Of a stretch of DNA of 39,723 nt, positions 1 through 39,723 are shown piece by piece. The stretch spans positions 1-39,723 of the IMG/VR virus record IMGVR_UViG_3300038335_000064; one strand, given 5' to 3'. A model generated the notes under the pieces. That model was not told where the DNA came from, ran no database searches, and saw only the letters and a program-made list of their open reading frames with translations. The stretch is from a virus. A program made the position numbers and the translations under genes. Positions within the stretch are counted from its first letter, which is position 1; each line of letters opens with the position of its first letter.

Positions 1-127
1 CGCCGGGGATGTCGCCGGAGATGAGCGCGTAGTAGAACCGCGCGGTGCTGTCGAGCGAGAGGCTGATCAGTTCGGATTTTGCTGACGTGACCGGCGGGGC
101 TTGCCCGTTGCCAAACTCGCCCAGATC
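1..127. repeat. 127-bp terminal direct repeat, copy 1 (identical to 39597..39723); circular-closure overlap
   Basis: Bases 1-127 match 39597-39723 base for base. Both copies sit inside one continuous minus-strand reading frame. Confidence 0.95.
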
Positions 128-2083
128 AAGGTGCAGCAGGTAATCATGCAGCGCTGCGGCGCCACCGTTGGCGATCTCGTCGAGCACCGCGCGGTAGTAC
201 TCGTGCGAGAGTTTCTCGGGTGTCCAGATCACGACGTGCCGCCGGTCATCCTCTTCCAGCACCACGGGCATGGATTCGTTGGAGAGGAACACCATGTTGA
301 CGTGGTTGCGTTCGTCGTAGGCCGCCAGGTTCTTCGGGTTGATGCGTATCCATTCGCCGGTGATGAAAGCCTTGAGCTTGTTCTTGACGTGGTACAGGTC
401 GCTGCGCGCGATCACTTCGTCGGCAATCAGAAACAGCTTGCGCGACGCCCAATCGTTGAAGCGGTCTTCGATGGCGTCTTGGCCGATGACGCGGCCGTAG
501 GGGCCGTAGATCGACATGAGCGCTTCGAAGAACAGATTCTTGCCGGTACCCTGCGGGCCATGAATCACCAGCGTGGTCTTCATCTTTGCGCCCGGGTGCT
601 GGATGGGGTACGCGATCCAGCGCAACACCCAGCGATAGAGCACCTCGGGGTGGGTATCGTTTGCGCACATGTAGCGCAAAAGATCGAGCAGTTTGTCGCA
701 CCCTCCGGCCGCCGGCGCGGTGGGCCAGCCGGCCCAGAGATTGCATTTAATTTCGGCGTCATCGCCACCAGGATCAAAGCCGACTTCACGCACGCGCACG
801 ATGTCGCGCTCAGGGTGTTCGCACCAGGCGCGGTGCAGCTCGCGCGTGAGGCAGGCATCGCGCATGTCAGACAACGCCAGCAGACAGTGTTCTTGCCGAT
901 CGAACACGGTCCCACCCTGCCCGTATACCAGCGCGTAACGCTCCAGCAACTCGCCAACTGAGCTGATCGGCGCCAGCCCCTCGCCCCTTGGTTTGATTGC
1001 AGGCGCTGCGCGGTGACTGATGTTCCACCCCAGCGCCGAGATGTGGCCCAGCACCTGCTCGCGCACGGCGACGCTGGTGCTCTCGGACGCGAAGTCATTG
1101 AAGTCGGTAAGTTTGATGTCGCGCTCGGCAAACTTCGCCCAGCGTGCTGCTGTATCCGGAAACTGCGGTGTGATCCACGCCCCGCCGACTTCCAACGCGG
1201 CGGTGCTGGCGGCCAACACACCGGCGTTGGATCGGTCATGGGGCTGCCCACATGACGGGCACATTGTGGGGTGCTCGGCGAGCGACAACTTGTGCTCGCA
1301 CCGGCGGCATTTCGCCAGGCTGTCGTCATCGGCGCAGATCAACACCTTGATAATCTTGTGGCGCTTGCGCAGCGCCGCGCAAACCGGCGCGAGGTTACCC
1401 GCATCGAACGCCACGGCAACCGGTAGCCCGGTGGCCTGGTGCAGGGTCGCGGCGGTGGCGTAGCCCTCGGCGACCAGCAACACCTGGTCTGGCACACCGA
1501 TCAGGTGGAAGTTTCCGCGCTTGGCCATTCCGGCAGGCCAGAACTCTTTGCGCGGGCGCTTGGCTGCGGCCGACTGCGCTGCGGTGCGGATGAATTGCAG
1601 GCCGTGCACAACACCCGCGACATCCGTCAGCGGGATAACCACCGCGCCAGCGCTGGTGAAGCGCACCCCGTGCGCGCCGACGCCCTTGCGTGCCAGGTAC
1701 TCCGATTCGCCATCGAGGGCGTATCGCGACCATGCCGATTGTGCGGATCGAGCTGCGCGGTCGCTCTCGATGCGCCTGGCGACATCCGCGCGCTTGCGAT
1801 CTTCAGCCAACCGCTTGCGAATCGACTCGCGCTGCTCTGCCGAGAACTCCGATTTGCGCAACTCGATTTTCTGCGCCCCATTGTCGCTGCCGTGCCAAAT
1901 TCCGTAGCTGCCGACCAGCAGGGTCTCGCCTTTCTGCGATTGAATTTCGTGCGCGATGTACCATCCGCGACGCTCGCGATCACCCTCGACGCGGCATCGC
2001 CGCATCCGGCCCACCTCGATGCTGTCGACGATCAGACCGGCGCCAGTCAACTGTGCGAGCACATCACCATAGTTCGCCGCCAC
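1..2083 (-). CDS. Primase-helicase (Toprim + zinc ribbon + P-loop helicase), N-terminal and central part; the gene crosses the window junction
   Basis: Manual minus-strand translation in codon phase 128+3n is open from GTG at 2083-2081 to base 1. The in-frame upstream stop is at 2092-2090. The ORF track misses it because the stop lies across the junction. Motifs: VAANYGDVLAQLTGAGLIVDSIEVGRMRRCRVEG..RGWYIAHE; Toprim-like LLVAEGYATAATL and KVLICADDD; CRRC..CPSC; Walker A VIHGPQGTGKN; Walker B LFLIADEV. Confidence 0.85.
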   Translation of the reverse strand, partial: MAANYGDVLAQLTGAGLIVDSIEVGRMRRCRVEGDRERRGWYIAHEIQSQKGETLLVGSYGIWHGSDNGAQKIELRKSEFSAEQRESIRKRLAEDRKRADVARRIESDRAARSAQSAWSRYALDGESEYLARKGVGAHGVRFTSAGAVVIPLTDVAGVVHGLQFIRTAAQSAAAKRPRKEFWPAGMAKRGNFHLIGVPDQVLLVAEGYATAATLHQATGLPVAVAFDAGNLAPVCAALRKRHKIIKVLICADDDSLAKCRRCEHKLSLAEHPTMCPSCGQPHDRSNAGVLAASTAALEVGGAWITPQFPDTAARWAKFAERDIKLTDFNDFASESTSVAVREQVLGHISALGWNISHRAAPAIKPRGEGLAPISSVGELLERYALVYGQGGTVFDRQEHCLLALSDMRDACLTRELHRAWCEHPERDIVRVREVGFDPGGDDAEIKCNLWAGWPTAPAAGGCDKLLDLLRYMCANDTHPEVLYRWVLRWIAYPIQHPGAKMKTTLVIHGPQGTGKNLFFEALMSIYGPYGRVIGQDAIEDRFNDWASRKLFLIADEVIARSDLYHVKNKLKAFITGEWIRINPKNLAAYDERNHVNMVFLSNESMPVVLEEDDRRHVVIWTPEKLSHEYYRAVLDEIANGGAAALHDYLLHLDLGEFGNGQAPPVTSAKSELISLSLDSTARFYYALISGDIPG

Positions 2084-2502: not shown

Positions 2503-2717
2503 GTTCGCCGTCCCGTAGCGACCGCTTCAGCCCGCTCGACAGCCGCCTGGCAATCGATGCACCGAACCGCCCCGATCTGCTGACGCACCGGGTGAATCGG
2601 CTCGCCACATTCGCATTCGCTCGCGCCGACACCACGCACCACAGCGCGGGCGCGGTCAATGGCCTCGGCAGTGGCAGCGAGCACGCGCTCCTGCACCGCA
2701 TCCATCTCATCAGGCAT
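2499..2717 (-). CDS. TraR/DksA-family C4 zinc-finger protein
   Basis: 72 aa from ATG 2717-2715. Motif CECGEPIHPVRQQIGAVRCIDCQ (CxC..CxxC). Overlaps the upstream gene stop by 8 nt. Confidence 0.75.
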   Translation of the reverse strand: MPDEMDAVQERVLAATAEAIDRARAVVRGVGASECECGEPIHPVRQQIGAVRCIDCQAAVERAEAVATGRRT

Positions 2718-3309
2718 CGATACCCCTCCCCTGTTTATCGCCAGGCAGCAGCGCCTGCACCTGCCGACGCAGGCCAAGCACCGCCGCAATCACGTCATCG
2801 GATTCATCGAGAATTCGCCGCGCATGCGGCAGGTCCGCATCGGTCAAGCGGCCGTCTGCTAGTGCTGGCGCGAGCGCCGCGCACAGGTCGCCGACTTCGC
2901 TCATCAGCCGCCCAAGCGTCATCGTCTCTGCGGACTCGCTTGGCGGGCTCAAGCGCACCGGCAGATGACCGCGCCGACGCGCCAGCTCACGCTCGCACTC
3001 GGCACGGAATGGCTCGGGCAACGCGCAGACCCACGCATCTTCCAGATCGGCCGGCATCGCCTTCACAGTGCCGTCCATGTACCGGCTGATGATCTGCGCG
3101 TTGTGGCGCTCCGCCTTGCACAGATCATCGAGCGTTACCCCGGCCCGGAACGGCACCTGACGCAGATCAGGCGCCACACGCGCCGCGTATTCATCAGCCA
3201 CGCGCGCAGCGAACTTACGCACGCACAACGCCGTGGCATCGAGCATTCGGCGCGTCGCGCCGAAAATCACCGCCGAGCGCGGCGGCAGGAAATGATGCTC
3301 AGGCTTCAT
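2710..3309 (-). CDS. Phage regulatory CII-like protein (CP76-type, tentative)
   Basis: Start MKPEHHF with a GAGGA 9 nt upstream. AQIISRYMDGT... and the C-terminal DGRLTDADLPHARRILDESDDVIAAVLGLRRQV resemble CII/CP76-family regulators. Confidence 0.5.
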   Translation of the reverse strand: MKPEHHFLPPRSAVIFGATRRMLDATALCVRKFAARVADEYAARVAPDLRQVPFRAGVTLDDLCKAERHNAQIISRYMDGTVKAMPADLEDAWVCALPEPFRAECERELARRRGHLPVRLSPPSESAETMTLGRLMSEVGDLCAALAPALADGRLTDADLPHARRILDESDDVIAAVLGLRRQVQALLPGDKQGRGIDA

Positions 3310-3567
3310 GCGCGCGCATCCTCGCTCGGGCACGCTTGCGCCCCATGAACACCACGATCAACGAACAAACCCCGGGGGCCATCCATGGCCGCGCTGCTGT
3401 GTCGAGCAGCAACGCCCCGACCCGGAGAGGAGATTCGCGGCCCGCCGGCTGTCGCCAACCTGGGGAGGGGGCAGCCGGCGCGCATTCGCCGACGGGCCGC
3501 GAAAGGGGTGGCGCCCACCCTGCGGTAAGCTGCGGTTACCAGACCAACAGCCCGCAAGGAGGGCACC

Positions 3568-5318: not shown

Positions 5319-5594
5319 TCATGCCGCCTTCTCGGTGGGCGTGGGGTCTGCGCGGGTGTAGCCGGCGGCTTCTATCGCTGCAACGAGGTCGGGGCGCAGC
5401 TCGGCAATCGAGACCGCGCCGTCCGTGGCGGATTGAATGCGCTGCGCAAGTTGCGGGGACGCGCGCTTGTGCCCGAGCGCAATCATGTACAGCGTCCGGA
5501 AGCTGCATCCGGCGCGATCTGCCACGCGGGCGAGCACTGGGCAATTGATTTTGCCGGTTCCACCCTCGGCGCGCGTGTAGGCTGAGATATTCAT
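5319..5594 (-). CDS. Cro/YdaS-family HTH regulator
   Basis: MNISAYTRAEGG...LYMIALGHKRASPQLAQRIQSATDGAVSIAELRPDL matches the YdaS/Cro pattern. It diverges from the cI-like gene across a 70-bp operator region. Confidence 0.7.
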   Translation of the reverse strand: MNISAYTRAEGGTGKINCPVLARVADRAGCSFRTLYMIALGHKRASPQLAQRIQSATDGAVSIAELRPDLVAAIEAAGYTRADPTPTEKAA

Positions 5595-5601
5595 GCCCAA
5601 G

Positions 5602-5630
5602 ACATTACCGTATCGGTTACGCGGTTGCAA
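5602..5630 (-). promoter_or_regulatory. Candidate leftward early promoter (cro)
   Basis: On the minus strand: TTGCAA (5630-5625), a 17-nt spacer, then TAATGT (5607-5602). The predicted start is about 5595, which makes cro leaderless or nearly so. Confidence 0.45.
5605..5619. promoter_or_regulatory. Operator-like 15-mer TTACC-N5-GGTTA
   Basis: Imperfect palindrome that overlaps the -10 and spacer of the cro promoter. Confidence 0.45.
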
Positions 5631-5645
5631 TACCCTTTCGGTCAT

Positions 5646-5660
5646 TTACCGCCGTGGTAA
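5646..5660. promoter_or_regulatory. Operator-like 15-mer TTACC-N5-GGTAA (perfect arms)
   Basis: Perfect 5-bp inverted arms, ending 4 nt before the cI-like ATG. Confidence 0.5.
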
Positions 5661-5664
5661 CGCC

Positions 5665-6180
5665 ATGCACTATGAGCACATGGATGCGAAGACTGCCAGG
5701 ACCATGAACATCCGCGCCTTGGTAACCCGAGAGGGTGGGCCAACCAAGTTTGCAGAAAAGTCAGGGGACTGGTCCCAGGCGCAAGTCAGCCAATGGATTT
5801 CTGAGACGAACCCAAAGGGCATCGGGCATGCGCTAGCCCGCGCCATAGAGCGCACGTTCGGCCTGGCCCAAGGCTGGATGGATCAGCCGCACGGCACCGT
5901 CCATATCGGCGTCGCAACCACGGCCATCGAGACCGTGACGATCAGCCCGCTGTCGCACCGCCCCGACCCGGTGTTGCTGAGCCGGGCGGTCAGCGAGGCG
6001 ATGGATGCCTTTCGGCGCAAACGCCTGCTGCCCACCGACGCGGCGCTAGCCAGGGCCATCGTGCTGGCCTATCAAAGCCTGGCGGCTGGCGTTGCGCTCG
6101 CTGCTAGCCGCCGCGCACTCGATGAGGCCCTGCAGAAAGTCCTTACCGAAGAACTGGCCGATCACCCCAAGCAGGAATAG
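5665..6180 (+). CDS. cI-like HTH repressor without an S24 peptidase domain
   Basis: NIRALVTREGGPTKFAEKSGDWSQAQVSQWISETNPKGIGHALARAIERTFGLAQGWMDQP is a lambda-repressor-type HTH. The C-terminus is helical with no Ser/Lys protease motifs. No SD precedes ATG 5665. Confidence 0.7.
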   Translation: MHYEHMDAKTARTMNIRALVTREGGPTKFAEKSGDWSQAQVSQWISETNPKGIGHALARAIERTFGLAQGWMDQPHGTVHIGVATTAIETVTISPLSHRPDPVLLSRAVSEAMDAFRRKRLLPTDAALARAIVLAYQSLAAGVALAASRRALDEALQKVLTEELADHPKQE

Positions 6181-7828: not shown

Positions 7829-8158
7829 TCACCGCGCCGCCTGCCCAAGAGTGTCGGCCGCCCACTGATTGAGGCTTTTGCCGGCGAGCTCGGCGGCGCG
7901 GATCGCGACGGCGTGCAAATCCGGCGACACCCTCAGCAGTATCTTGCCGCTCGCCGGCCGCTCTGGGCGCTGCCCCAGCTTGCTGCATGCCTCGGTGTAA
8001 TCGTCCACCGCAGCATGGAACGCCTGCTCCAGTTCGTCCACCGTGGACCCGTGGAATCCCACAACATCGCGGATGCCGGCAACGTGGCCGACGAAGATGC
8101 GATCTTCCGGATCGTACTCGATGCGGGCCGCGTAGCGCTTGTAGATCATGGTGTTCAT
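7829..8158 (-). CDS. hicB: HicB-family antitoxin
   Basis: MNTMIYKRYAARIEYDPEDRIFVGHVAGIRDVVGFHGSTVDELEQAFHAAVDDY... followed by a C-terminal RHH-like tail. ATGA overlap with hicA. Confidence 0.85.
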   Translation of the reverse strand: MNTMIYKRYAARIEYDPEDRIFVGHVAGIRDVVGFHGSTVDELEQAFHAAVDDYTEACSKLGQRPERPASGKILLRVSPDLHAVAIRAAELAGKSLNQWAADTLGQAAR

Positions 8159-8409
8159 GGCGTTACTCCAATGCATTGCAAGAACGAGCGCGCATCCTTG
8201 ACGCGGTAACGCAGCGCTTCCTTACGCGGGTGCGGGCGATGGAAAAACACCTTCTCCCCATCCTTCTCGAACGTGACCGACGACCCGCTGCCATCAACTC
8301 GCCGGCAGCCGATGGCCAGCAGCAGCGCCTCGATTCTGGACCACTCCAATGCCCCGTTCACCGGTTCGGCAAAGATGGCGGCCAACGTCTTGCGGTGCGC
8401 GCTGTTCAT
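8155..8409 (-). CDS. hicA: HicA-family mRNA interferase toxin
   Basis: 84 aa, MNSAHRKTLAAIFAEPVNGALEWSRIEALLLAIGCRRVDGSGSSVTFEKDGEKVFFHRPHP. Confidence 0.85.
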   Translation of the reverse strand: MNSAHRKTLAAIFAEPVNGALEWSRIEALLLAIGCRRVDGSGSSVTFEKDGEKVFFHRPHPRKEALRYRVKDARSFLQCIGVTP

Positions 8410-12727: not shown

Positions 12728-12955
12728 ATGACAGACACTTGGCTTATCCCCGCCGAAGTCGAAGAGCTCACCGCCAGACAGCGGTGGTCCGCGCAATGCC
12801 GGGCGCTGGCAGCAATGGGTATTCCGTTTCGGCCCAACGCCGTCGGCCGCCCGCTGGTTGAGCGTGCAGTGATACTCTCGCAGGCTGGCAAGCCAAAGCC
12901 AAAGCGCGAACCGAACTGGGGGGCCATCAAGCATGGGCCGGCCAAGACTGCATGA
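12728..12955 (+). CDS. DUF4224-domain protein (integrase-associated, possible excision factor)
   Basis: LIPAEVEELTARQRWSAQCRALAAMGIPFRPNAVGRPLV. Lies immediately upstream of int and overlaps it. Confidence 0.7.
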   Translation: MTDTWLIPAEVEELTARQRWSAQCRALAAMGIPFRPNAVGRPLVERAVILSQAGKPKPKREPNWGAIKHGPAKTA

Positions 12956-13901
12956 CAAGCACCTGCCGCGCGGTATGTTGCACCGGCACGGCGCCTACTA
13001 CTTCGTCGCTGCCGGCAAATGGCACCGGCTCGCCAGTGAGTACGGCCCGGCGCTAATCCGCTACGCCGAGCTTGTGGGCAACACGCCAACCGTGACCACG
13101 GTCGCCGATGCGGTATCACATTACCTTGAATCGAGCGCGGCACGACTACGGCCCGCCACCCTCGAAGGCTACCGCAACGGCGCCCGTAGGCTGGCCGCAG
13201 TGTTCGGCCGCATGGCTCTCAGCGACCTCACCGCCGCGCACGTCTACCGCTACCTGGTCGAGCACGGCACCGTGCAGGCGAACCGCGATCGCGCGTTGCT
13301 GAGCGCTGCGTACAGCCACGCACGCCGCATCGGCGCGTTCAGCGGCGACGACCCCACCAAGCGCCTGCAATTCCGCAACCCGGAAGTCCCGCGCCAACGC
13401 TACGTCACCGATGCCGAGTTCGCAGCACTGATCGCCGCCGCACCGCCGCGCCTCGCCGTCATCCTACGCTTCGTGTACACCACCGGCATGCGCATTGGCG
13501 ACGCGCTCGCGATGCCGATGGATGCGATCACCGACGACGGCATCGCCTACCAACAACGCAAGACCGGCGCGCGCCTGCTGATCGAGATAACGCCAGACCT
13601 GCGCGCCCTACTCGATGAAATCGCCCGCACATTTCGCCGCTTCGGCCGCCGCTATTTGTTCGAATCGCGCCCAACCCGCGCCGGGCCGGCCGGGCCGTAC
13701 ACCGTCAGCGGACTGCGCAGCAACTTTCGGCGGGCGCTGGCCAAGGCTGGGCTTGCGCACATGACCTTGCATGACCTGCGGCGCAAGGCCGGCAGCGACA
13801 TCGAGGGCGAGCACGCAACACGGTTGCTCGGCCACCGCGACGCCAAGGTCACGCAACGCCATTATCGCGCCAAGCCAGAGCGCGTAAAACCGGTCCTGTA
13901 G
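12933..13901 (+). CDS. int: Tyrosine recombinase / phage integrase
   Basis: Lambda-Int-like N-terminus MGRPRLHDKHLPRGM..GAYYF. C-terminal catalytic motifs HDLRRKAGS and LLGHRDAKVTQRHY. Confidence 0.9.
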   Translation: MGRPRLHDKHLPRGMLHRHGAYYFVAAGKWHRLASEYGPALIRYAELVGNTPTVTTVADAVSHYLESSAARLRPATLEGYRNGARRLAAVFGRMALSDLTAAHVYRYLVEHGTVQANRDRALLSAAYSHARRIGAFSGDDPTKRLQFRNPEVPRQRYVTDAEFAALIAAAPPRLAVILRFVYTTGMRIGDALAMPMDAITDDGIAYQQRKTGARLLIEITPDLRALLDEIARTFRRFGRRYLFESRPTRAGPAGPYTVSGLRSNFRRALAKAGLAHMTLHDLRRKAGSDIEGEHATRLLGHRDAKVTQRHYRAKPERVKPVL

Positions 13902-14124: not shown

Positions 14125-14155
14125 CGCGCTGGGTGCTGTCCATTTGCGGATGCTT

Positions 14156-14165
14156 TGTCCAAAAC
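14156..14165 (+). repeat. TGTCCAAAAC repeat, copy 3 (a partial CTGTCCA copy lies at 14136-14142)
   Basis: Exact 10-mer on the far side of the core from copies 1 and 2. Confidence 0.5.
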
Positions 14166-14221
14166 CCAGACACGCTGGAAGTATTGGATGCGATAATGGA
14201 CGCCTCAACCAGGAGGCGGAC

Positions 14222-14665
14222 ATGGGCAGGCCACGGAAGCACGATACGGATCTACCACAGCGTCTTTTTCAACGTCGCGGCAAGTTCTACTACGTCAACG
14301 GCGATGGGCAATGGGTGCCGCTCGGCGGCGATCGCGAAGAAGCGATCACTGCCGCGGAGCGGATGAACGCCTTGTCCGCCGAAGCGCGCCTCGCCGCAGC
14401 CGCGATGGTCCGGGATGTGGGTGCGGAGTTGCGTCGAATCGTGTTCGGCCGGGACGGGCACAAGTGCGTTTACTGCGGGGCAACCGACCTGCTCGAAATA
14501 GACCACGTCGTGCCTGCGGCGAACGGCGGCGCATCGACCGTGCGCAACCTAGTCGTCGCTTGCTCGCGTTGCAACATGATGAAGTCCGACGGCGACTTGG
14601 CCGCGTTCTTCATGAAGCTGCACCGCGTGGTAGAGCGGTGTCTGGACGCGGCCGCCGCGAAGTGA
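14222..14665 (+). CDS. Fusion protein: lambda-Int-type arm-binding N-terminal domain + HNH nuclease
   Basis: AGGAGG lies 5 nt before the ATG. The N-terminus MGRPRKHDTDLPQRLFQRRGKFYYVNGDGQWVPLGGDREEAITAAERMN parallels the int N-terminus here and the lambda Int arm-binding domain. The C-terminus carries HKCVYCG..EIDHVVPAANGG..NLVVACSRCNMMK. Confidence 0.75.
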   Translation: MGRPRKHDTDLPQRLFQRRGKFYYVNGDGQWVPLGGDREEAITAAERMNALSAEARLAAAAMVRDVGAELRRIVFGRDGHKCVYCGATDLLEIDHVVPAANGGASTVRNLVVACSRCNMMKSDGDLAAFFMKLHRVVERCLDAAAAK

Positions 14666-17353: not shown

Positions 17354-18004
17354 TTATGCGATGACTACGATGTTGGATTCTGCGGAGCCCACGCTCTCGC
17401 AAGTGGCGTTGCTGGCGAAGACCATCGCGCCGTAGCTCCACCCGGTGCGAACCGAATTAGCATCGCTATTTAGCGTTGCAGGCGAGCCGGCGACGAACAC
17501 TACGCCGCCGGTGAACTGCGCGGTTTCGTCGAGGAACTCCACGCGATAACCCGTGATTGCGCTGCCGCCGTTGTCTGCGGGCGGCGTAAACGTCACGCTC
17601 AGCGCGTGTGGGCCTACCTGCGTGAGCGCGCCGATGGTCGGAGCGCCTGGGGCGTCGATCGCGGTGATCGAGTTCGATGGGCTAGATATGGGTCCAGCGC
17701 CGACCGCATTGATTGCGAAGACGGTGAACGTGTACGCCACGCCGCGCGTGAGTCCGGACACGACGATGGGCGATGACGTCCCGATGTTGAACAGTCCGCC
17801 AGGCGACGATGTGACGCGATAACCAGTGATCGGGCTACCGCCGTTGTCTGCGGGCGGCGTAAACGTCACGCTCGCGGACTTGGTGCAAACCGCGGTGGCG
17901 ACAATGCCGGTCGGCACTTCCGGTACGGTGGCGACAATGCCGGTCGGCACTTCCGGTACGGTAGCGCCCTTGCCAGACATCAAAAGCGTAGCGGCACCGG
18001 ACAT
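17354..18004 (-). CDS. Protein with two fibronectin type III-like domains
   Basis: Contains two TFTPPADNGGS(P/A)ITGYRV signatures and YTFTVFAINAVGAG. The N-terminus holds an exact 2x33-bp in-frame repeat (17894-17959). Confidence 0.7.
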   Translation of the reverse strand: MSGAATLLMSGKGATVPEVPTGIVATVPEVPTGIVATAVCTKSASVTFTPPADNGGSPITGYRVTSSPGGLFNIGTSSPIVVSGLTRGVAYTFTVFAINAVGAGPISSPSNSITAIDAPGAPTIGALTQVGPHALSVTFTPPADNGGSAITGYRVEFLDETAQFTGGVVFVAGSPATLNSDANSVRTGWSYGAMVFASNATCESVGSAESNIVVIA

Positions 18005-21991: not shown

Positions 21992-22716
21992 GCATCCTCG
22001 CCGTAGGCCGCCAGCGACAGGCGAAACTCCAGCATCAGCGGCCGGCCGCTGGCATCCAGCTCGCTGCCGGTGGTCTCGACCCGGGTGAGCACGTACAGGC
22101 CGAGCACCGTGCCGGACGAATCGACCAGTGCCTGCGGCTCGCCCTGGTCGGCGAGCGCGCGCAGACGGGTGATCGTTTCGGTGCCGCCGGTGTAATGGGT
22201 CAGGGTGTAGCCGGACAGCTCAATGGTTTCCTCGCCGCGGCCAAGAAACTGATGTGCCGGTGCGCGGCCCAGGCGCTCCTGCGCCGCCCAACGGTAATCG
22301 ATCGAGCGCGCGATGCTCTGGTGCGCCAGCGCACCGGCCAGAAACTGCACCGGCCCCAAGCTCAGCAGCACGCTGCCACTGGGCGGCGGATCGCCGGCCG
22401 ATGCGTTGGCGCTGCCACTGGGCGGCGGATCGCCGGCCGATGCGTTGGCGCTGCCACTGGGCGGCGATGTGGCGAGCGTTGGCGACAATGTGGGCGCTGG
22501 CAGGTCAGGCGCTGGCGCTACCGGCGTTGCCCCCAGCGCGGTGCGGAATCGATCCACGCGCCCGCTCAACAGCGCGCCGGCCCAGCTTGGCACACCTGCC
22601 GCAGTCAGCGCAGCGGACATCGCCGACACCGGATCGCGCGGCATGCCGCGCGCGAGATTGATCAGGCTGCGCGTCTGCCGCGCGGCGCTGACCACCCGGC
22701 CGATATCCAGGCTCAT
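21988..22716 (-). CDS. Tail protein U (P2 gpU-like) with a repeat-bearing N-terminal extension
   Basis: The C-terminal approximately 135 aa (LLSLGPVQF...RWAAQERLGRAPAHQFLGRGEETIELSG...) are gpU-like. The N-terminal approximately 105 aa are extra. Confidence 0.8.
   Translation of the reverse strand: MSLDIGRVVSAARQTRSLINLARGMPRDPVSAMSAALTAAGVPSWAGALLSGRVDRFRTALGATPVAPAPDLPAPTLSPTLATSPPSGSANASAGDPPPSGSANASAGDPPPSGSVLLSLGPVQFLAGALAHQSIARSIDYRWAAQERLGRAPAHQFLGRGEETIELSGYTLTHYTGGTETITRLRALADQGEPQALVDSSGTVLGLYVLTRVETTGSELDASGRPLMLEFRLSLAAYGEDA
22372..22449. repeat. Exact 2x39-bp tandem repeat (plus a degenerate third unit) inside gpU
   Basis: GCTGCCACTGGGCGGCGGATCGCCGGCCGATGCGTTGGC occurs twice and encodes PPSGSANASAGDP units. 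Confidence 0.9.
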
Positions 22717-34849: not shown

Positions 34850-36762
34850 AGGCGCTTGCTCCAGTTCGATGAGGCGAGCGGCGCGGCCTGATGTTTGGCT
34901 GGCGCGGGTTGCGGTTTGTTCGCTTGCGGTTGCGACGGCGATGCGTCCAGGGTACCGGCGCGTAGCGCCGCCTCGCGGAGGTCCCAATCGGCTTTGGTCC
35001 AGCGGTGCAATCGCAGTTCGGGGTGATGGGTGGCGGCGTACGAATATACCCAGCAATCCAAGGGTTCATTGCGCGGCGCGCCGCGCCGCTTTTCGAATCG
35101 GTTGCGCGCGGGGTTGTAGGTCTCGGCAGTCAGCCCGCCGAAGTAGCCGGCATCGAGATCGTTGCTGAAGCGCACCAGGCGCGATTCCGTGGCCTTATCG
35201 GCGTCGGTGCTCAGCCGGCTGTACAGCAAGTGCTTGATCGCCACCGTGCCGACCGCGTGGATATGCACGCCGCGCTTGTCCAGTTGGCCGCGAAAATTGA
35301 TGTCCTGCAGCTTGCCCTTGCCCAGCACCGGCGCGTTGTTCGGCACGGCGCCGTGGATCGCCAGCATCCGCCGCACCAGCCGTTGCCGGACGTATGCCTT
35401 GACCGCCTCGGTGCGGTGCCCGCCGATGTCGATCGCCGCGGCTTCGACCTGCATCACGCCACCATCGCAACGCTCGATCGGGCGCAGCAGCAGGTCGGTC
35501 AAGCCGGCCCAGACGGCATCATCGGCCGGATCGCCTGGCAACTCCACGTAATCAATGGTCCAACTGGTCAACCCACGCCCCCAGCCGGTGATGTGTACGG
35601 CCAGCCGGTTGTCCTGGGTATCGATGCCTGCGGTGATCGCCAGCACCCAAGCCGGCGCCGGGCGCATCGGCAGCGGCTCGGCGCGGTCGGCAATCAGGTT
35701 GTGCTTGACCGCGCGCATGGCCGGGTCTTCCCACGGCTCGGCGAGGCGATCATTGATGAACGTCTTGAGCTTGGCCGGGTCGTTTTGCGCGCCGATCCAC
35801 ATGCGCGCAAGGTCACGCCAGCGCGGGCCGAGGCCGATCGGGTAGTACAGGCCATTGAGGTGGTAGCCGCGCCGAATGCCGCCGCGCTCGGGGTGCTCGG
35901 GCACCCATTCGCCGGATGCCAGCATTACCGGCTTGTGGTGCTCATCGATGACGGCCCCGCATTCGCGGCAGGCATACCAGGCTTCGCTGGCATCCGCCGA
36001 CCAGTGCAGGCCTGCCCATTCCAGCGCCTGCCGGTGGCCGCAATGCGGGCACGGGACGTGGTAGCTACGCATGTCACTGCCCAACCACAGCGCCTCGATG
36101 CGCGAGACACCCTGAGTTTGCGGTGTGGAAATGTACAAGCGCTTGTACGTGGCCGGAAACGCCGACGTACGCCCTTCCAGCAGGGAAATCGGATCGTCGC
36201 CGCCAATCAACGCAGCGGCGAATTCGTCCACTTCGTCCACGATCAGCACTTTGACCGTGGTTGACTTCAGGCGCTGCGGGCTGCCGGCATGCTCCAGATG
36301 CAACTGTCCGCCGCGGAAGTCCTTGAACTCGCGGCGGTTGGCACCGTCGCGCGTGGCGGTGGTGGTCAGTGCCCGCTGCACGGCCGGCGTTTCTTCGATC
36401 AGCGGCCCGAGTTTCTGCGCAATCCACTTGCTCAGCGCCACTTCGCCCGGCAGCGCGACCATGATTGGCGCCGGCGCGTGGTCCATGACGTAGCCCACCG
36501 CATTCAGTGCCAGCTCCGACTTGGCGCTCTGGATCGGGAACATCAGCGCAAGCTCGCGTACTGGCGAGCGCACCGACATGCAATCCATTGGCTCGCGCAG
36601 ATAGGGCACCCGCGCGGTGCGCCAGCGGCCGGGCTCGGGTGATTGCTTGCTGGACAGCACCCGCTCAGCATCGGCCCATTGCGAAACCGTCAGTGGCCGC
36701 CGCGGCGCAATGGCGCGTGCCGACGCCTGCGCGACCGTGGCAATTGCCGCACCGAGGTTCAC
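34846..36762 (-). CDS. Terminase large subunit (lambda gpA family)
   Basis: 638 aa, ...PLTVSQWADAERVLSSKQSPEPGRWRTARVPYLREPMD...VLIVDEVDEF. Confidence 0.9.
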   Translation of the reverse strand: MNLGAAIATVAQASARAIAPRRPLTVSQWADAERVLSSKQSPEPGRWRTARVPYLREPMDCMSVRSPVRELALMFPIQSAKSELALNAVGYVMDHAPAPIMVALPGEVALSKWIAQKLGPLIEETPAVQRALTTTATRDGANRREFKDFRGGQLHLEHAGSPQRLKSTTVKVLIVDEVDEFAAALIGGDDPISLLEGRTSAFPATYKRLYISTPQTQGVSRIEALWLGSDMRSYHVPCPHCGHRQALEWAGLHWSADASEAWYACRECGAVIDEHHKPVMLASGEWVPEHPERGGIRRGYHLNGLYYPIGLGPRWRDLARMWIGAQNDPAKLKTFINDRLAEPWEDPAMRAVKHNLIADRAEPLPMRPAPAWVLAITAGIDTQDNRLAVHITGWGRGLTSWTIDYVELPGDPADDAVWAGLTDLLLRPIERCDGGVMQVEAAAIDIGGHRTEAVKAYVRQRLVRRMLAIHGAVPNNAPVLGKGKLQDINFRGQLDKRGVHIHAVGTVAIKHLLYSRLSTDADKATESRLVRFSNDLDAGYFGGLTAETYNPARNRFEKRRGAPRNEPLDCWVYSYAATHHPELRLHRWTKADWDLREAALRAGTLDASPSQPQANKPQPAPAKHQAAPLASSNWSKRL

Positions 36763-37364
36763 GGCGTCACATCCAGTGCGCCCAGCCGACGGCTAAGTTC
36801 GGCCAGTTGCAGTTCCACCGCCTCGGCAATCAGTGCCCGGCACCGCCCTTCATCGGCTTCGGCCGCCAGTTGCGGCCCAAGCGTATCGGCCAATGCCTCC
36901 AGGCCGGCGCGCGCGATCGCAAACGCCCCAGCGCACACCGCCACCACATCGGCGGTGCGCAGCAACTTGCCTTCGTTCTCGGCATGTTCGCGCTCGGCGC
37001 TCAGCGCGGCAGCGCGCTCGCGGCGCTCGCGCCAATACTGGTAGCCGAGCGTGGGTGCTTCGGGTTCGCTACCGCCGTCAACCGCCGCAGCGGCGCTATC
37101 GGGCGGCGGCAGCGCGTTCTGCGGTTGGCCCGGCGCTGCTCCCCTCCTCGCCTCCCGTTGCGCGGCGTGGCGTTCGGCGACGGCGCGCTTGCCGGGGTCG
37201 CGAGTGGCTTCGATGCGCGCGATCGACTCGGCCACCTGCACTGCCCCATCATCTGCCAGCACCAGCCGGCCATCGCGCTTGAGCGCGGTGACGTAGCTGC
37301 GCCGGTAGCCGAGCAGGCGGGCGAACTCGGCTTGCGTGCAGGTTTGCGGTAACCCGTCGGTCAT
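36759..37364 (-). CDS. Terminase small subunit (Nu1-like N-terminal HTH)
   Basis: TQAEFARLLGYRRSYVTALKRDGRLV. Position and overlaps with terL and the upstream gene fit. Confidence 0.7.
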   Translation of the reverse strand: MTDGLPQTCTQAEFARLLGYRRSYVTALKRDGRLVLADDGAVQVAESIARIEATRDPGKRAVAERHAAQREARRGAAPGQPQNALPPPDSAAAAVDGGSEPEAPTLGYQYWRERRERAAALSAEREHAENEGKLLRTADVVAVCAGAFAIARAGLEALADTLGPQLAAEADEGRCRALIAEAVELQLAELSRRLGALDVTP

Positions 37365-38290
37365 CCGTTGGCCTCGCGGTAGGTTTGCACGGCCGCATGA
37401 AACACGCTGATCTGCTCACCCAGCCAGTCGGTTTCGGTGCGATCGACGGGCGGGATGATGTCGCCCAGGTACAGCACGCCATGTGGCCCGAGCACTTGCG
37501 AGCCGGCCTGGTAGCGCTTGCGGGCACTGGCCACGCCGTAGCGGCGCTGCAGGGCGTTGATGAAGTGCTGCTGCGCGGCGATGCGGGCGCCGTTGGCGCT
37601 GCACCAGCGCTGATAGAGGTCGTAAACGCTGGTGCTTAGCGCCGGGCGCGCGCTGACGCCGGGGATGTCGCCGGCGGTGAGCGCGGTGTAGAACCAGGCA
37701 ATGGAGTCATCGTAGGCCAGCGCTGCGTCCGCGCCAGCCGGGTCGGCCGCAACCTCGACGCCCAGCTCATCGGTCCAGTCCACGCCGGTGTGGCGCTGCG
37801 CGCAGGCAAAGGCAGCGCGCATGGCGCGGGCCGGGGCCATGCGGGTTTTCTGCGCGGTGCGCAAGGCGGCGGCGAAGATGCGCCCGGCGCTAACCAGCAC
37901 ATCGGCGCGGTGGTTCGGCGGCGCGGGGATGGGTTGCGGCGTGGAGGCGGCGCCGGTGACCAGGGCATCGTAGGCGCGGATGACGTGCAGGTGGAACTTG
38001 GCGCTGATCCACATGGCGTAGGCGTAGACCAGTTCTTTGACGGCGTAGGTGCCGTTTCCGAATCCGTCGTTCACCGTGGACAGGGGGGCCTCCTCAGATG
38101 TGAGGAGGCCCCCCGCACTTTTCTCGGTGTTTTCGATCTCCGCGATCAGTTCGGCGGTCTGATCGAGTCGCAACCAGTTCGCCGGCTGGTGCCGCTTGGC
38201 ACCGCCACTGGCTTGGTGCAAGTCATTGAGGCAGTAGCGCCCGGTCGGATCGCGGCGAATCTGGGTATTGGCGATGATCAGGGCATTCAC
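37361..38290 (-). CDS. KilA-N domain protein fused to a paralogue of the primase C-terminal domain
   Basis: GGAGG lies 6 nt before GTG 38290. KilA-N signature: IRRDPTGRYCLNDLHQASGG..ANWLR...GTYAVKELVYAYAMWISAKFHLHVI. The last approximately 113 aa are about 65 percent identical to the primase tail (39301-39640). Confidence 0.8.
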   Translation of the reverse strand: MNALIIANTQIRRDPTGRYCLNDLHQASGGAKRHQPANWLRLDQTAELIAEIENTEKSAGGLLTSEEAPLSTVNDGFGNGTYAVKELVYAYAMWISAKFHLHVIRAYDALVTGAASTPQPIPAPPNHRADVLVSAGRIFAAALRTAQKTRMAPARAMRAAFACAQRHTGVDWTDELGVEVAADPAGADAALAYDDSIAWFYTALTAGDIPGVSARPALSTSVYDLYQRWCSANGARIAAQQHFINALQRRYGVASARKRYQAGSQVLGPHGVLYLGDIIPPVDRTETDWLGEQISVFHAAVQTYREANG

Positions 38291-38949
38291 AGGGCACCTC
38301 CACGGGTTTCTTCGGCAATGATTTCGGCGCAGCGGGCGAGCAGAAAGCCCACCATGTCGTCCACCTCGGCGGGGCTGATCCCGTCGCGCAGCAGGCAATC
38401 GCGGAAATCGCGTTCGGCCAGTGCGAGGCCGTGATCTAACGGGTCGCGCTCGGCCGCGGCCGGCAGCACGCGGCGGGAGCGCTGGGATGGGAAGGCAATG
38501 ACGTTGCTGGGCCGCGCGTTGGCGGCAAGGGTGCGGGTGCTCATGGCGATGGTCTCCAACTGGTCTGTGGAGTCCGCCACCGCGACGCCAATCGCGGAGA
38601 CGGACGACGCGGGGTTGGCGTACCGGCAGTTGGCACCGGCGAGCCTTGCGGCTCCCCCGCGCCGCCCGCCATAGACCGGCGAGTGACGCAACGCAGGGCC
38701 CAGTGCCGATGCACCGGGCGTGAAAAAAGCGCCGGCATCGGACGATGGGCGCTTGCGCGCCAACGTGCTCGGGACGCCAATCCCGGCTGCCCGATTGAGG
38801 GCAGCGGGGCCAGCGTACACCCGTGCCGCAGGGCGAGGCAAGCACCGCAGTACCGCGTTAGTCTCGCCGTCGGCGGACAGTCTGCTGCCGGCCCAGCGCT
38901 GAAACGCCGGGCTGCGCATTGCGGCAAGCGTGGCCTGTGTGTTGCTCAT
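38287..38949 (-). CDS. Hypothetical protein (alternative start ATG 38544 gives an 85-aa product)
   Basis: AGGAGG lies 4 nt before ATG 38949 and GC3 is about 78 percent. The middle is low complexity and contains a terminator-like hairpin. GTGA junction with the KilA-N gene. Confidence 0.35.
   Translation of the reverse strand: MSNTQATLAAMRSPAFQRWAGSRLSADGETNAVLRCLPRPAARVYAGPAALNRAAGIGVPSTLARKRPSSDAGAFFTPGASALGPALRHSPVYGGRRGGAARLAGANCRYANPASSVSAIGVAVADSTDQLETIAMSTRTLAANARPSNVIAFPSQRSRRVLPAAAERDPLDHGLALAERDFRDCLLRDGISPAEVDDMVGFLLARCAEIIAEETRGGAL
38723..38752 (-). terminator. Candidate intrinsic terminator inside ORF 38287..38949
   Basis: On the minus strand: GCGCC-CATCG-(loop)-CGATG-cc-GGCGC followed by TTTTTT. 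Confidence 0.4.
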
Positions 38950-38978
38950 ACAACCTCCTTCAGCCAGGTGGAACCCGT

Positions 38979-39005
38979 GGGGTGCATCACAACCACCCCT
39001 TTTTT
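38979..39005 (+). terminator. Candidate plus-strand intrinsic terminator
   Basis: GGGGTG-N9-CACCCC followed by TTTTTT. It sits just 5' (minus sense) of the SD and ATG of ORF 38949. Confidence 0.35.
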
Positions 39006-39051
39006 CGCGAAACGCGAAGGTGAGTAAGACGCACACGCGAATGTGCAGCGG

Positions 39052-39124
39052 TGCGGGTAGGTGTGCGGGCAGCGATTGCGGGCACGGAACCGCGCTGCAT
39101 ATGGGCTGTGCGGGCAGTGCGGGC
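39052..39124 (+). repeat. Iteron-like array: five direct TGCGGG(C/T) copies
   Basis: Copies start at 39052, 39064, 39077, 39109 and 39118, giving spacings of 12, 13, 32 and 9. Confidence 0.8.
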
Positions 39125-39242
39125 TGCGCAAGGATTGCAGGCGGGGCGGGCGCGTTTTGTAGTATCGGATTCACGGACGCTACGCGCGCATGTGTGCGCG
39201 GTAGGCCGCAAACCCGTGAGAGCGCGCAACAGCGCCATTTGA

Positions 39243-39274
39243 GCCCGCACAGGCAGCCCGCACCGCAGCCCGCA
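39243..39274 (-). repeat. Iteron-like array: three inverted copies (GCCCGCA)
   Basis: Copies at 39243, 39256 and 39268, giving spacings of 13 and 12. They converge on the direct array. Confidence 0.8.
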
Positions 39275-39300
39275 CTGACGCACAGATGTTGGTGCAGCGA

Positions 39301-39723
39301 TCATTTATTGGCCTCGCGGTAGTCCTGCACGGCTGCTTGGAAGGCGCTAATCTGTTCGCCCAGCCAGGCGGTCTCGGTGGTGTCGGGCGGCGGTTCGTTC
39401 GCGCCCAGGTACAGCACGCCATGTGGCCCCAAGATGCGCGAGCCGGCCTGGTAGCGCTTGCGGGCGTTGACGACGCGGTGATGCCGCTGCCAGGCGTTGA
39501 TGAGCCGCTGTTGCGGCGCAGCGCGGTTGCCGGTGTGGTTGCACCACAGTCGGTACAGTTCGTAAACGCTGCTGCTGAGCGCGGGACACGGCGTAACGCC
39601 GGGGATGTCGCCGGAGATGAGCGCGTAGTAGAACCGCGCGGTGCTGTCGAGCGAGAGGCTGATCAGTTCGGATTTTGCTGACGTGACCGGCGGGGCTTGC
39701 CCGTTGCCAAACTCGCCCAGATC
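39301..39723 (-). CDS. Primase-helicase, C-terminal part (continuation of 1..2083; stop TGA at 39303-39301)
   Basis: The frame is continuous with bases 127..1 through the 127-bp overlap. It ends ...YQAGSRILGPHGVLYLGANEPPPDTTETAWLGEQISAFQAAVQDYREANK*. The total predicted protein is about 792 aa. The tail resembles the C-terminal domain of P4-alpha/D5-type primases. Confidence 0.8.
   Translation of the reverse strand, partial: DLGEFGNGQAPPVTSAKSELISLSLDSTARFYYALISGDIPGVTPCPALSSSVYELYRLWCNHTGNRAAPQQRLINAWQRHHRVVNARKRYQAGSRILGPHGVLYLGANEPPPDTTETAWLGEQISAFQAAVQDYREANK
39597..39723. repeat. 127-bp terminal direct repeat, copy 2 (identical to 1..127)
   Basis: Same as copy 1. Unique length is therefore 39596 bp. 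Confidence 0.95.

Follow-up and report, generated by a model that had tools for sequence, protein, structure and literature searches.

A KilA-N Regulator with a Primase-Type Winged Helix in a C4 Antisense RNA Cassette Suggests a Link Between Phage Immunity and Replication Control

The Regulator Gene and Its Shared Tail

The window analyzed here, that is, the whole stretch of 39,723 nucleotides (nt) given as positions 1 to 39,723 of the IMG/VR virus record IMGVR_UViG_3300038335_000064, is the circular genome of an S1-like temperate phage. An accessory cassette of about 1.6 kb (about 37365-38987), of the P1 immI type, separates its primase/iteron region from its terminase genes; it comprises a C4-type antisense RNA, a small open reading frame (ORF) and a gene for a protein of 309 amino acids (aa) that joins a KilA-N domain, a helical linker and a winged helix (Table 1). 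The winged helix is a paralog of the tail of the phage's own primase-helicase, and the gene that carries it is the subject of this study.

The KilA-N gene starts at GTG 38290 ('VNALIIANTQIRRD'), in agreement with an alignment of 15 KilA-N homologs beginning MNALII (homologs begin 'MNALIIANTQIRRD'), and its TGA stop (37361-37363) overlaps the ATG of the small terminase subunit gene (terS) as ATGA, so that terS lies directly downstream and is start/stop-coupled to it. The head is recognized by Pfam as KilA-N (PF04383; residues 8-111, 78.5 bits against a cut-off of 23.8), and the AlphaFold model of the full-length protein has a predicted local distance difference test (pLDDT) score of 89.6. Behind the head follows a two-helix module, here called 'mid', which is common to KilA-N, Bro-N and Rha fusions, is not present in primases and has no Pfam or PHROG match. 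ANT, AntA, KilA-C and P22_AR domains were not found in the protein by Pfam. Membership in the BstA-type defense proteins was considered and rejected, as the BstA model of PADLOC gave no match and the sole match was that of a 36-residue KilA-N stretch to PDC-S22.

The first-pass annotation of this DNA had described the tails of the KilA-N protein and of the primase-helicase as paralogs, which is borne out by BLASTP: residues 195-308 (37367-37708) align without gaps to residues 680-793 of the primase-helicase, 77 of the 114 positions being identical (68%, E-value 1e-46). At the DNA level the tails form a direct repeat of 300 nt (37358-37657 and 39298-39597) that is 74% identical and 1,940 nt apart, in keeping with the spacing of about 1.9 kb that had been given. 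The long near-identical nucleotide runs reported at the same time do exist as exact runs of 28, 28 and 19 nt, and yet the description was overstated, with an overall identity of 75% over 345 nt. The two 28-nt runs encode ARKRYQAGS and GPHGVLYLG, which are the two wing strands. Compared with each other as paralogs, the two tails have a ratio of nonsynonymous to synonymous substitution rates (dN/dS) of 0.44, with dS at 0.55; the ratio is 0.235 for the accessory copies of the window and of the related phage L005, and 0.13-0.22 for the primase copies between relatives. Both copies of the tail are intact and constrained.

The primase-helicase spans the junction of the linear record. Bases 1-127 of the window equal 39597-39723. 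An identity of exactly 127 bases, as against 128, is what an assembly with k=127 leaves at the ends of a circular contig; the contig is circular, the true genome measures 39,596 bp, and whatever lies close to the ends is counted twice. When the window ends are joined directly, the primase frame is broken, the cause being the 127-bp terminal overlap. With the overlap removed, a single minus-strand frame runs from GTG 2083 via the junction to the stop at 39301 (about 792 aa). Its domains according to Pfam are Toprim (204-260), a zinc ribbon, a DUF5906/superfamily 3 helicase (SF3) ATPase (509-617) and the C-terminal tail, so that the primase copy of the shared domain, about residues 680-793, forms the extreme C-terminus after Toprim and DUF5906. 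The best PHROG is phrog_2249 'DNA primase' (E-value 1e-140), and the shared tail matches the C-terminal 100 positions of that family.

Inside the KilA-N coding sequence there is also a perfect 14-bp inverted repeat with a 4-nt loop (38083-38114; GGGGGGCCTCCTCA / TGAGGAGGCCCCCC), which falls in a protein loop that is variable among homologs. On the plus (antisense) strand, with a T-rich run on its 3' side, it is scored as a terminator, and on the sense strand it masks GAGGAGG, located 14 nt before an in-frame GTG.

The C4 Antisense RNA Cassette

In the immI region of P1, C4 RNA blocks the translation of icd and thereby the expression of ant (PMC8198154). The cassette of the window is organized in a similar way. 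The recognition element a' (CCAACUG) of its C4 RNA is complementary to the target a2, which overlaps the GGAG Shine-Dalgarno sequence (38554-38557) of an 85-aa ORF at the icd position, and the element b' (ACGCCAA) is complementary to the sequence shared by b1, located upstream, and b2, located just 3' of C4. The TGA of the 85-aa ORF in turn overlaps the GTG of the KilA-N gene as GTGA (38287-38290), and stop/start overlaps are found at the equivalent place in L092, L096, and L099. The 85-aa ORF belongs to no Pfam or PHROG family, and the small ORFs at the same position in L005, L092, L096, and L099 are non-homologous. Upstream of C4 an isrK-like element remains below the Rfam cut-off in the window, and its homolog in L099 exceeds it (51.8 bits). 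No sigma-70-like promoter was found for the cassette.

C4 homologs score 60-78 bits in L005, L092, L093, L096, and L099, and the cassette is present in five lineages, namely the window, L005, L092/L093, L096/L097, and L099/L100. Across these, the RNA scaffold is conserved while the recognition elements vary and all targets change to match, which gives five phages with five co-varying specificities (a'/a2 and b'/b1/b2); the window and L005 differ in b'/b1/b2 only. Because the changes in RNA and targets are compensatory across five lineages, there is a strong case, drawn from sequence comparison, that the C4 gate is functional. The suggestion, made at first pass, that the fusion could act in the lysis-lysogeny switch is strongly supported by the C4 module directly upstream of it, which the first-pass annotation had overlooked.

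Two further ORFs, 38287-39174 (295 aa) and 38987-39304 (105 aa), were not accepted as genes, as they cross the iterons as well as the C4 RNA; the only call that includes the second one is that of a chimeric product, P0001, in L001-L003. In the segment 38824-38987 there is a strong GAAGGAGG-N5-ATG, with the ATG at 38948, from which a frame stays open for 220 codons across the a1/b1 hairpins, C4 and the 85-aa ORF, an arrangement that recalls P4 eta/kil running over cI. In L005 this segment (164 nt) is replaced by 49 unrelated nt, so that the start is not conserved.

Table 1. Features of the cassette and of the flanking genes (positions in the window).
Feature	Position	Strand	Basis
KilA-N–helical linker–winged helix gene, 309 aa	37361-38290	-	ORF list, Pfam, homolog alignment, model
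KilA-N domain, residues 1-114; swappable head, Bro-N in the sibling phage L005	37949-38290	-	Pfam
Two-helix 'mid' module, residues about 124-176, motif HRADxLVSAGRIF...TGxDWxxELG	37763-37921	-	Alignments, model
Accessory winged-helix domain, residues 184-309	37364-37741	-	BLASTP, AlphaFold, dN/dS
85-aa ORF, P1 icd position	38287-38544	-	Sequence reading
Downstream C4 targets, b2 UUGGCGU (38585-38591) and a2 CAGUUGG (38556-38562)	38553-38592	-	Covariation, five phages
C4-type antisense RNA	38593-38676	-	Rfam RF01695, 64.1 bits (cut-off 45), E-value 7e-12, full length
isrK-like element: target hairpins, then terminator-like hairpin and U run	38722-38805	-	Rfam isrK, 41.5 bits, below the cut-off of 50, E-value 2.5e-7
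Upstream C4 target hairpins, a1/b1-like; b1 UUGGCGU (38774-38780)	38766-38818	-	Rfam c4-a1b1, 34.3 bits, below the cut-off of 46.7, E-value 1e-6
Iteron cluster, presumed origin	39045-39275	both	Repeat search, relatives, layout compared with P4 crr
Primase-helicase, 3' end; winged-helix tail about 39301-39645	39301-39723	-	39597-39723 duplicates window 1-127
Primase-helicase, 5' part (GTG start at 2083): Toprim, zinc ribbon, DUF5906/SF3 ATPase	1-2083	-	Pfam, PHROG
Small terminase subunit gene (terS)	36759-37364	-	PHROG phrog_57 'terminase small subunit', E-value 1.6e-25

The Winged-Helix Family

A word-index protein search with the tail returned two proteins only, and an exhaustive profile search over 1.84 billion representative proteins was needed to delimit the family. 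At E-values of 1e-3 or lower it comprises 158 representatives, and the domain stands nearly always at the extreme C-terminus. Pfam identified DUF5906 in 17, KilA-N in 15, Bro-N in 8, Toprim_3 in 8, Pox_D5 in 8 and Rha in 3 of the 147 members searched, and, more rarely, PriCT_2, RFX_DNA_binding and Cdc6_C (2 each) and AntA (1); the SF3-type region of the window is present in 28 of 152 family sequences. In about 60 representatives, some of which may be fragments, fewer than 40 residues precede the domain, which thus apparently stands alone.

Neither tail of the window reaches a Pfam cut-off. The first-pass annotation had pointed to Pox_D5-type C-terminal domains for alignment, and the result is divided: the 8 family members match Pox_D5 (E-value 1e-3 or lower, at best 6.2e-7), whereas the KilA-N protein stays below the cut-off for this family (PF03288; 17.0 bits against 21.4, E-value 0.008, residues 217-249), and no Pox_D5 match was found by Pfam in the primase-helicase. 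The relationship of the domain to Pox_D5 is hence a remote one, judging from these profiles.

The structure prediction that had been proposed gave a winged helix with high confidence (AlphaFold, 58 family sequences, pLDDT 95.9), in the order H1, short strand, H2, H3, β-hairpin wing and long C-terminal helix. Its best viral structural matches in BFVD are the C-termini of large helicase/primases (probability 1.0, template modeling [TM] score 0.69), and Bro-N and N1R/p28 (KilA-N) proteins are also among the viral matches. A PDB sequence search with a three-sequence profile gave chance matches only, and with the 58-sequence profile the matches were marginal (SaPI5 primase-helicase residues 717-760, in its C-terminal region, E-value 0.067; RFX5, E-value 0.77). 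From the model, its viral matches and the Pox_D5, RFX and Cdc6 winged-helix families reached by family members, the shared domain is identified as a winged helix of the type that ends primase-helicases, remotely related to Pox_D5.

Iterons and the Presumed Origin

An iteron cluster had been expected near 39040-39280 and is present at about that place, is kept in relatives and resembles P4 crr. On the minus strand, three copies of the 8-bp GTGCGGGC (39243-39275) follow directly after the primase stop, and on the plus strand there are three exact copies together with variants (39045-39124); about 110 bp of lower G+C content lie between the two arrays. Of 11 exact GTGCGGGC matches in the whole window, six are concentrated within 213 bp. 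The positions of the repeats are kept in L001, L004, and L005, whereas the spacers vary. Stenotrophomonas phage S1 has the same iteron core in the same inverted layout directly 3' of its primase gene, and more distant relatives have other 8-9-bp iterons at the same place (GTGCATGG in L096, GTGCGCCAG in L092), so that arrays directly 3' of the primase gene are found in eight related genomes (including the window, L085, L004, S1, L092, L096, and L099). Primases that are only 45-68% identical in the tail (S1, L004) share the same iteron core.

In the P4 record, crr is likewise located directly downstream of alpha and consists of 8-bp type-1 repeats in both orientations. The arrays, moreover, stay beside the primase gene even where the distance to terS is 1.7 kb (window) or 3.3 kb (L092). 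Because of this conserved, crr-like layout and the association with the primase gene, a putative origin is preferred, by analogy with P4, to a cosB site.

A lone GTGCGGGC at 2120-2127 was considered as an operator and is taken as a chance match, as it is not conserved in L085; it lies about 35 nt upstream of the primase start, after an A+T-rich stretch with a candidate promoter. In phage S1, the annotated hypothetical gene gp2 (NC_011589, 2454-2804) is filled with iterons, GATGTGCGGGCA occurring three times along with inverted CCCGCACA copies, and this region is more likely an origin region than a protein-coding gene.

Cassette States in Relatives and Origin of the Accessory Tail

The locus was compared among relatives whose primases are 82-84% identical at the DNA level. 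L085 and L086 have the primase gene, the iterons and then directly terS, with no cassette. L004 has other small ORFs and lacks the second tail. In L001-L003, three separate metagenome or read-set assemblies, 38987-37614 is missing and the last 82 codons of the accessory tail are left. In L005 the C4 module is 88.5% identical, the small ORF is another one, and a Bro-N head precedes the same linker and winged helix; the identity of its protein P0003 to that of the window is 21% for the head, 94% for the linker and 84% for the winged helix. In different phages, the cassette lies on either side of terS.

The direct repeats had been regarded as a substrate for deletion of the intervening segment, a product that was not seen in any relative; the deletion in L001-L003 ends at 38987 and 37614, outside the primase copy. 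P0001 (L001 358-939), a 193-aa 'protein' in the public gene calls of the three assemblies, is an annotation artifact of that deletion, in which a non-coding frame across the iterons is joined to the remnant of the accessory winged helix. Gain, loss or replacement of the cassette in four relatives breaks at the same point (L001 674/687, L005 177/227, L085 10649/10682), at the end of the iteron region (about 38988-38999) and just after the conserved motif TTCGCG(T/A)TTCGCGAAAAAAGGGGTGGTTG; this common point suggests a hot spot of recombination or a functional boundary.

When the tails are placed in a distance tree, those of the accessory type (window, L005 and the L001 remnant) group as a single clade nested inside the primase tails of this phage group, roughly equidistant (about 67%) from the window-type and the L004-type primases. 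Given this identity and nesting, the tail of this lineage is a comparatively recent derivative, its source being a primase tail from within the phage group. This is not the norm of the family: the window protein shares 55-78% of its head residues with 15 other KilA-N–linker–winged helix representatives, against only 25-41% of its winged-helix residues. In the recognition helix, 10 of 12 positions are the same in the accessory copy (QQHFINALQRRY) and in the L004 primase (QQHLINALQRRH), and that primase is accompanied by the same iterons as the window. The substitution ratios indicate that the accessory winged helix has been kept under purifying selection since its acquisition.

Possible Roles of the Accessory Winged Helix

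A role in origin control can be proposed from these elements. The primase tail would read the 8-bp GTGCGGGC iterons after its gene, by analogy with P4 alpha on the type-1 repeats of ori and crr. Upon infection or induction the C4 repression would be lifted, and from its kept recognition helix and wing the accessory copy is predicted to go to the same iterons; alternatively, it may pair with the winged helix of the primase via the long C-terminal helix. For P4, regulation of the origin-binding winged helix by homo- and heterodimerization is stated in the title of Yeo et al. (2002), cited in PMC2777425. Because the accessory protein lacks the primase and helicase domains, it would modulate the use of the origin rather than initiate, and the most likely effect would be competition or heterodimerization by which initiation is restrained or re-timed. 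The immunity state set by C4 would thereby be coupled to replication, just upstream of the packaging genes. As a whole, this chain, in which a C4-gated regulator with a primase-type winged helix modulates origin use, is tentative but quite possible, and it suggests a link between phage immunity and replication control. One version of it, an immunity-coupled switch in which the regulator competes or heterodimerizes with the initiator at GTGCGGGC and either times the firing of the origin or jams the origins of related competitors, and in which the fast turnover of the winged helix in the family reflects a repeated re-matching to new origins, has to be considered doubtful.

Several observations weigh against the proposal of origin control. 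The first-pass annotation had itself named the absence of the fusion from close relatives as a point against its reading, and there the fusion is indeed absent or truncated, so that the gene is accessory; the cassette is dispensable, being absent in L085, L086, and L004 and truncated in L001-L003. In L092, L096, and L099, the accessory winged helix and that of the resident primase share only 32-37% identity, hence a closely matched pair is not generally required. The PDB fold search gave no significant match (E-values of 0.18 or higher, TM score about 0.4), although the top matches, weak as they are, are mostly winged-helix DNA binders, such as Cdc6/Orc1 (on origin DNA), RTP and Pex, with RFX at rank 12. 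A comparison of the family profile with the last 154 aa of P4 alpha by hhalign was non-significant (E-value 0.03, probability 1.6%), the 25 aligned columns being the equivalent H2-H3 stretch, and the P4 alpha chain is found neither among the PDB sequence matches at E-values up to 10 nor among the 50 best fold matches listed. The tail is therefore not accepted as a demonstrated homolog of the P4 origin-binding domain, and of its earlier description as a P4 alpha-type module there remain the C-terminal location in a Toprim and SF3 primase-helicase and the winged-helix model. Finally, the iteron arrays abut terS in L085, L086, L096, L099, and S1, which makes cosB-type terminase sites possible, and the KilA-N gene holds the position equivalent to ant of P1, which suggests an antirepressor acting by protein-protein contact.

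An antirepressor of this classical kind is the main rival to origin control. The protein would contact the repressor (5593-6180), the obvious candidate target in that case, or another regulator, as P1 Ant does, and its winged helix would be a shuffled interaction or dimerization module with no DNA target in common with the primase. Besides the ant position of the gene in an immI-like operon, this is favored by the membership of the protein in the Bro network of domain-swapping regulators (PMC10111431), by the swap of heads at the same locus in L005, by the differences in detail between accessory and resident winged helices in L092, L096, and L099, and by the presence of a repressor, a CII-like activator and an integrase in the phage. 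However, ANT, KilA-C and P22_AR domains were not found, the winged helix was drawn specifically from a primase tail and retains its recognition helix and wing under purifying selection, and the cassette always lies beside the primase/iteron region. On balance an antirepressor is judged unlikely.

The winged helix might also occupy the origins of related incoming phages or satellites, or the phage's own origin, and block replication, so that the protein would be an anti-competitor or exclusion factor comparable to the KilA-N defense protein BstA. Under C4-type control the gene would be silent in the lysogen, but exclusion factors are as a rule made by the prophage; the gene is, in addition, start/stop-coupled to terS, and the PADLOC comparison gave no BstA match, a short KilA-N stretch matching PDC-S22 only. 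An exclusion factor is hence regarded as improbable, even though the fast evolution of the winged helix in the family (about 30% identity, compared with 61% for the heads) is as expected for an arms-race specificity module and the accessory, patchy distribution would fit.

A link to packaging, in which the GTGCGGGC arrays are cosB-type terminase sites and winged-helix proteins serve to recognize cos or to switch the phage from replicating to packaging its DNA, would account for arrays immediately upstream of terS in L085, L086, S1, L096, and L099 and for the start/stop coupling of the KilA-N gene to terS in the window and to terL in L096 and L099. It is quite improbable in view of the fact that the arrays remain with the primase gene where terS is 1.7 kb (window) or 3.3 kb (L092) off, that the layout fits both P4 crr and the 'ori downstream of pri' arrangement of phage-inducible chromosomal islands (PICIs) (PMC10111431), and that the iterons differ among phages with TerS proteins that are 40-45% identical, with no evident tracking of TerS similarity. 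That the second tail is a decaying, functionless by-product of illegitimate recombination is very hard to credit and already disfavored, as the truncated remnant in L001-L003 (last 82 codons fused to a non-coding frame) is set against intact ORFs in the window and L005 (dN/dS 0.235), an architecture that recurs in at least 26 representative clusters, and a gene within a conserved, regulated cassette of five phage lineages.

Antirepressor-type proteins of the Bro network are abundant in phages and satellites, and the roles of their C-terminal modules are mostly obscure, for which the KilA-N fusion offers a concrete, testable case. If its tail reads the same iterons as the primase or pairs with it, an immunity circuit would be linked directly to origin control; if true, a family of at least 158 representative clusters, the majority of which lack a Pfam family match, would moreover receive a name and a likely activity. 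Even if the mechanism fails, the relatives form a natural series on how such a cassette is built and lost, ranging from no cassette to a KilA-N head, a Bro-N head and a truncated remnant.

The Phage Genome and Neighboring Genes

The phage is temperate, as it carries an integrase, a repressor and a CII-like activator. Genes recognized at 7829-8176, 14144-14665, 12933-13901, 5593-6180 and 2710-3333 encode an HicB-like antitoxin, an HNH endonuclease, the integrase, the repressor and the CII-like activator, respectively. The closest isolate is Stenotrophomonas phage S1 (NC_011589, designated L089 here), with 63% identity in the large terminase subunit (TerL) and 44% in the primase tail. Because a scan of GTDB genomes with a narrow alignment gave no relative, the host is taken from the similarity to Stenotrophomonas phage S1 alone. 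The TerS of the window is 40-45% identical to those of L092, L096, and L099.

TerL has 638 aa in the window, compared with 1,010 aa in L004 (1739-4771) and 1,100 aa in L092 (13019-16321), with a faint LAGLIDADG_3 match, which together suggest an intein or homing-endonuclease insertion. Perfect or nearly perfect tandem repeats are located in other minus-strand ORF regions, at 22371-22466 (39 nt, 2.5 copies, 100%) and 17893-17966 (33 nt, 2.2 copies, 97%).

Comparison with Known Systems

The cassette resembles the immI regions of P1 and P7 (c4 – icd – ant1/2) in that a C4-family RNA above the Rfam cut-off has two recognition elements whose targets lie upstream and also over the ribosome-binding site of a small ORF, itself translationally coupled to a downstream regulator. 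As in the heteroimmunity of P1 and P7, the specificities differ among relatives and the targets compensate. Unlike in P1, the effector consists of KilA-N, a helical linker and a primase-type winged helix, with no ANT, AntA or P22_AR domain, nothing similar to icd or to a known family was detected in the small ORF with Pfam and PHROG, and the cassette is placed between a presumed origin and the terminase genes of a genome that resembles those of lambda-type cos-terminase siphophages.

P4 shares with the window an initiator that combines a Toprim primase, an SF3 helicase and a C-terminal winged helix, as well as 8-bp iterons in both orientations directly downstream of the initiator gene (ori/crr). 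The tail, in contrast, has no significant similarity to alpha, and the iteron sequence is different. A second protein that modulates the origin-binding winged helix by heterodimerization has a precedent in P4, to the extent that the title of Yeo et al. (2002) indicates. Unlike the P4 protein Cnr, the second winged-helix protein of the window is not small and is a KilA-N fusion under antisense-RNA control.

In papillomaviruses, E8^E2 is a negative regulator derived from an initiator/activator, with which it shares the DNA-binding part without the catalytic part. In the plasmid pIGRK, replication is negatively regulated by RepR', an in-frame, truncated Rep protein (PMC6854812), and the RepR/RepR' pair is likewise one in which a second protein has the DNA-binding part of the initiator minus the catalytic part and is able to regulate negatively at the same sites. 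Both RepR' and E8^E2 are in-frame or spliced products of the same gene, whereas the accessory tail of the window belongs to a separate, diverged paralog (68%) that is fused to another DNA-binding head.

Iyer and colleagues reportedly described, in 2002, a 'Bro network' of domain-swapping phage and satellite regulators with Bro-N, KilA-N, Rha and AntA heads. The fusion is like the members of this network in having interchangeable heads on a common C-terminal module, KilA-N and Bro-N alternating at the identical locus in sibling phages. It is unlike them in that the tail is a primase-family winged helix behind a conserved two-helix linker, with no match to a Bro-network tail in Pfam, and in that the winged helix was recently taken from the replication initiator in this lineage. 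An association of C4/isrK-type RNAs with Bro-network genes was noted for P4 eta and PICIs, so that these RNAs, the shuffling of the network and the association of the two in P4 and PICIs are already known (PMC10111431). New, as far as the searches show, are a primase-family winged helix as the tail of a regulator, the conserved helical linker, and a tail that was freshly taken from the initiator lineage and placed beside its iterons.

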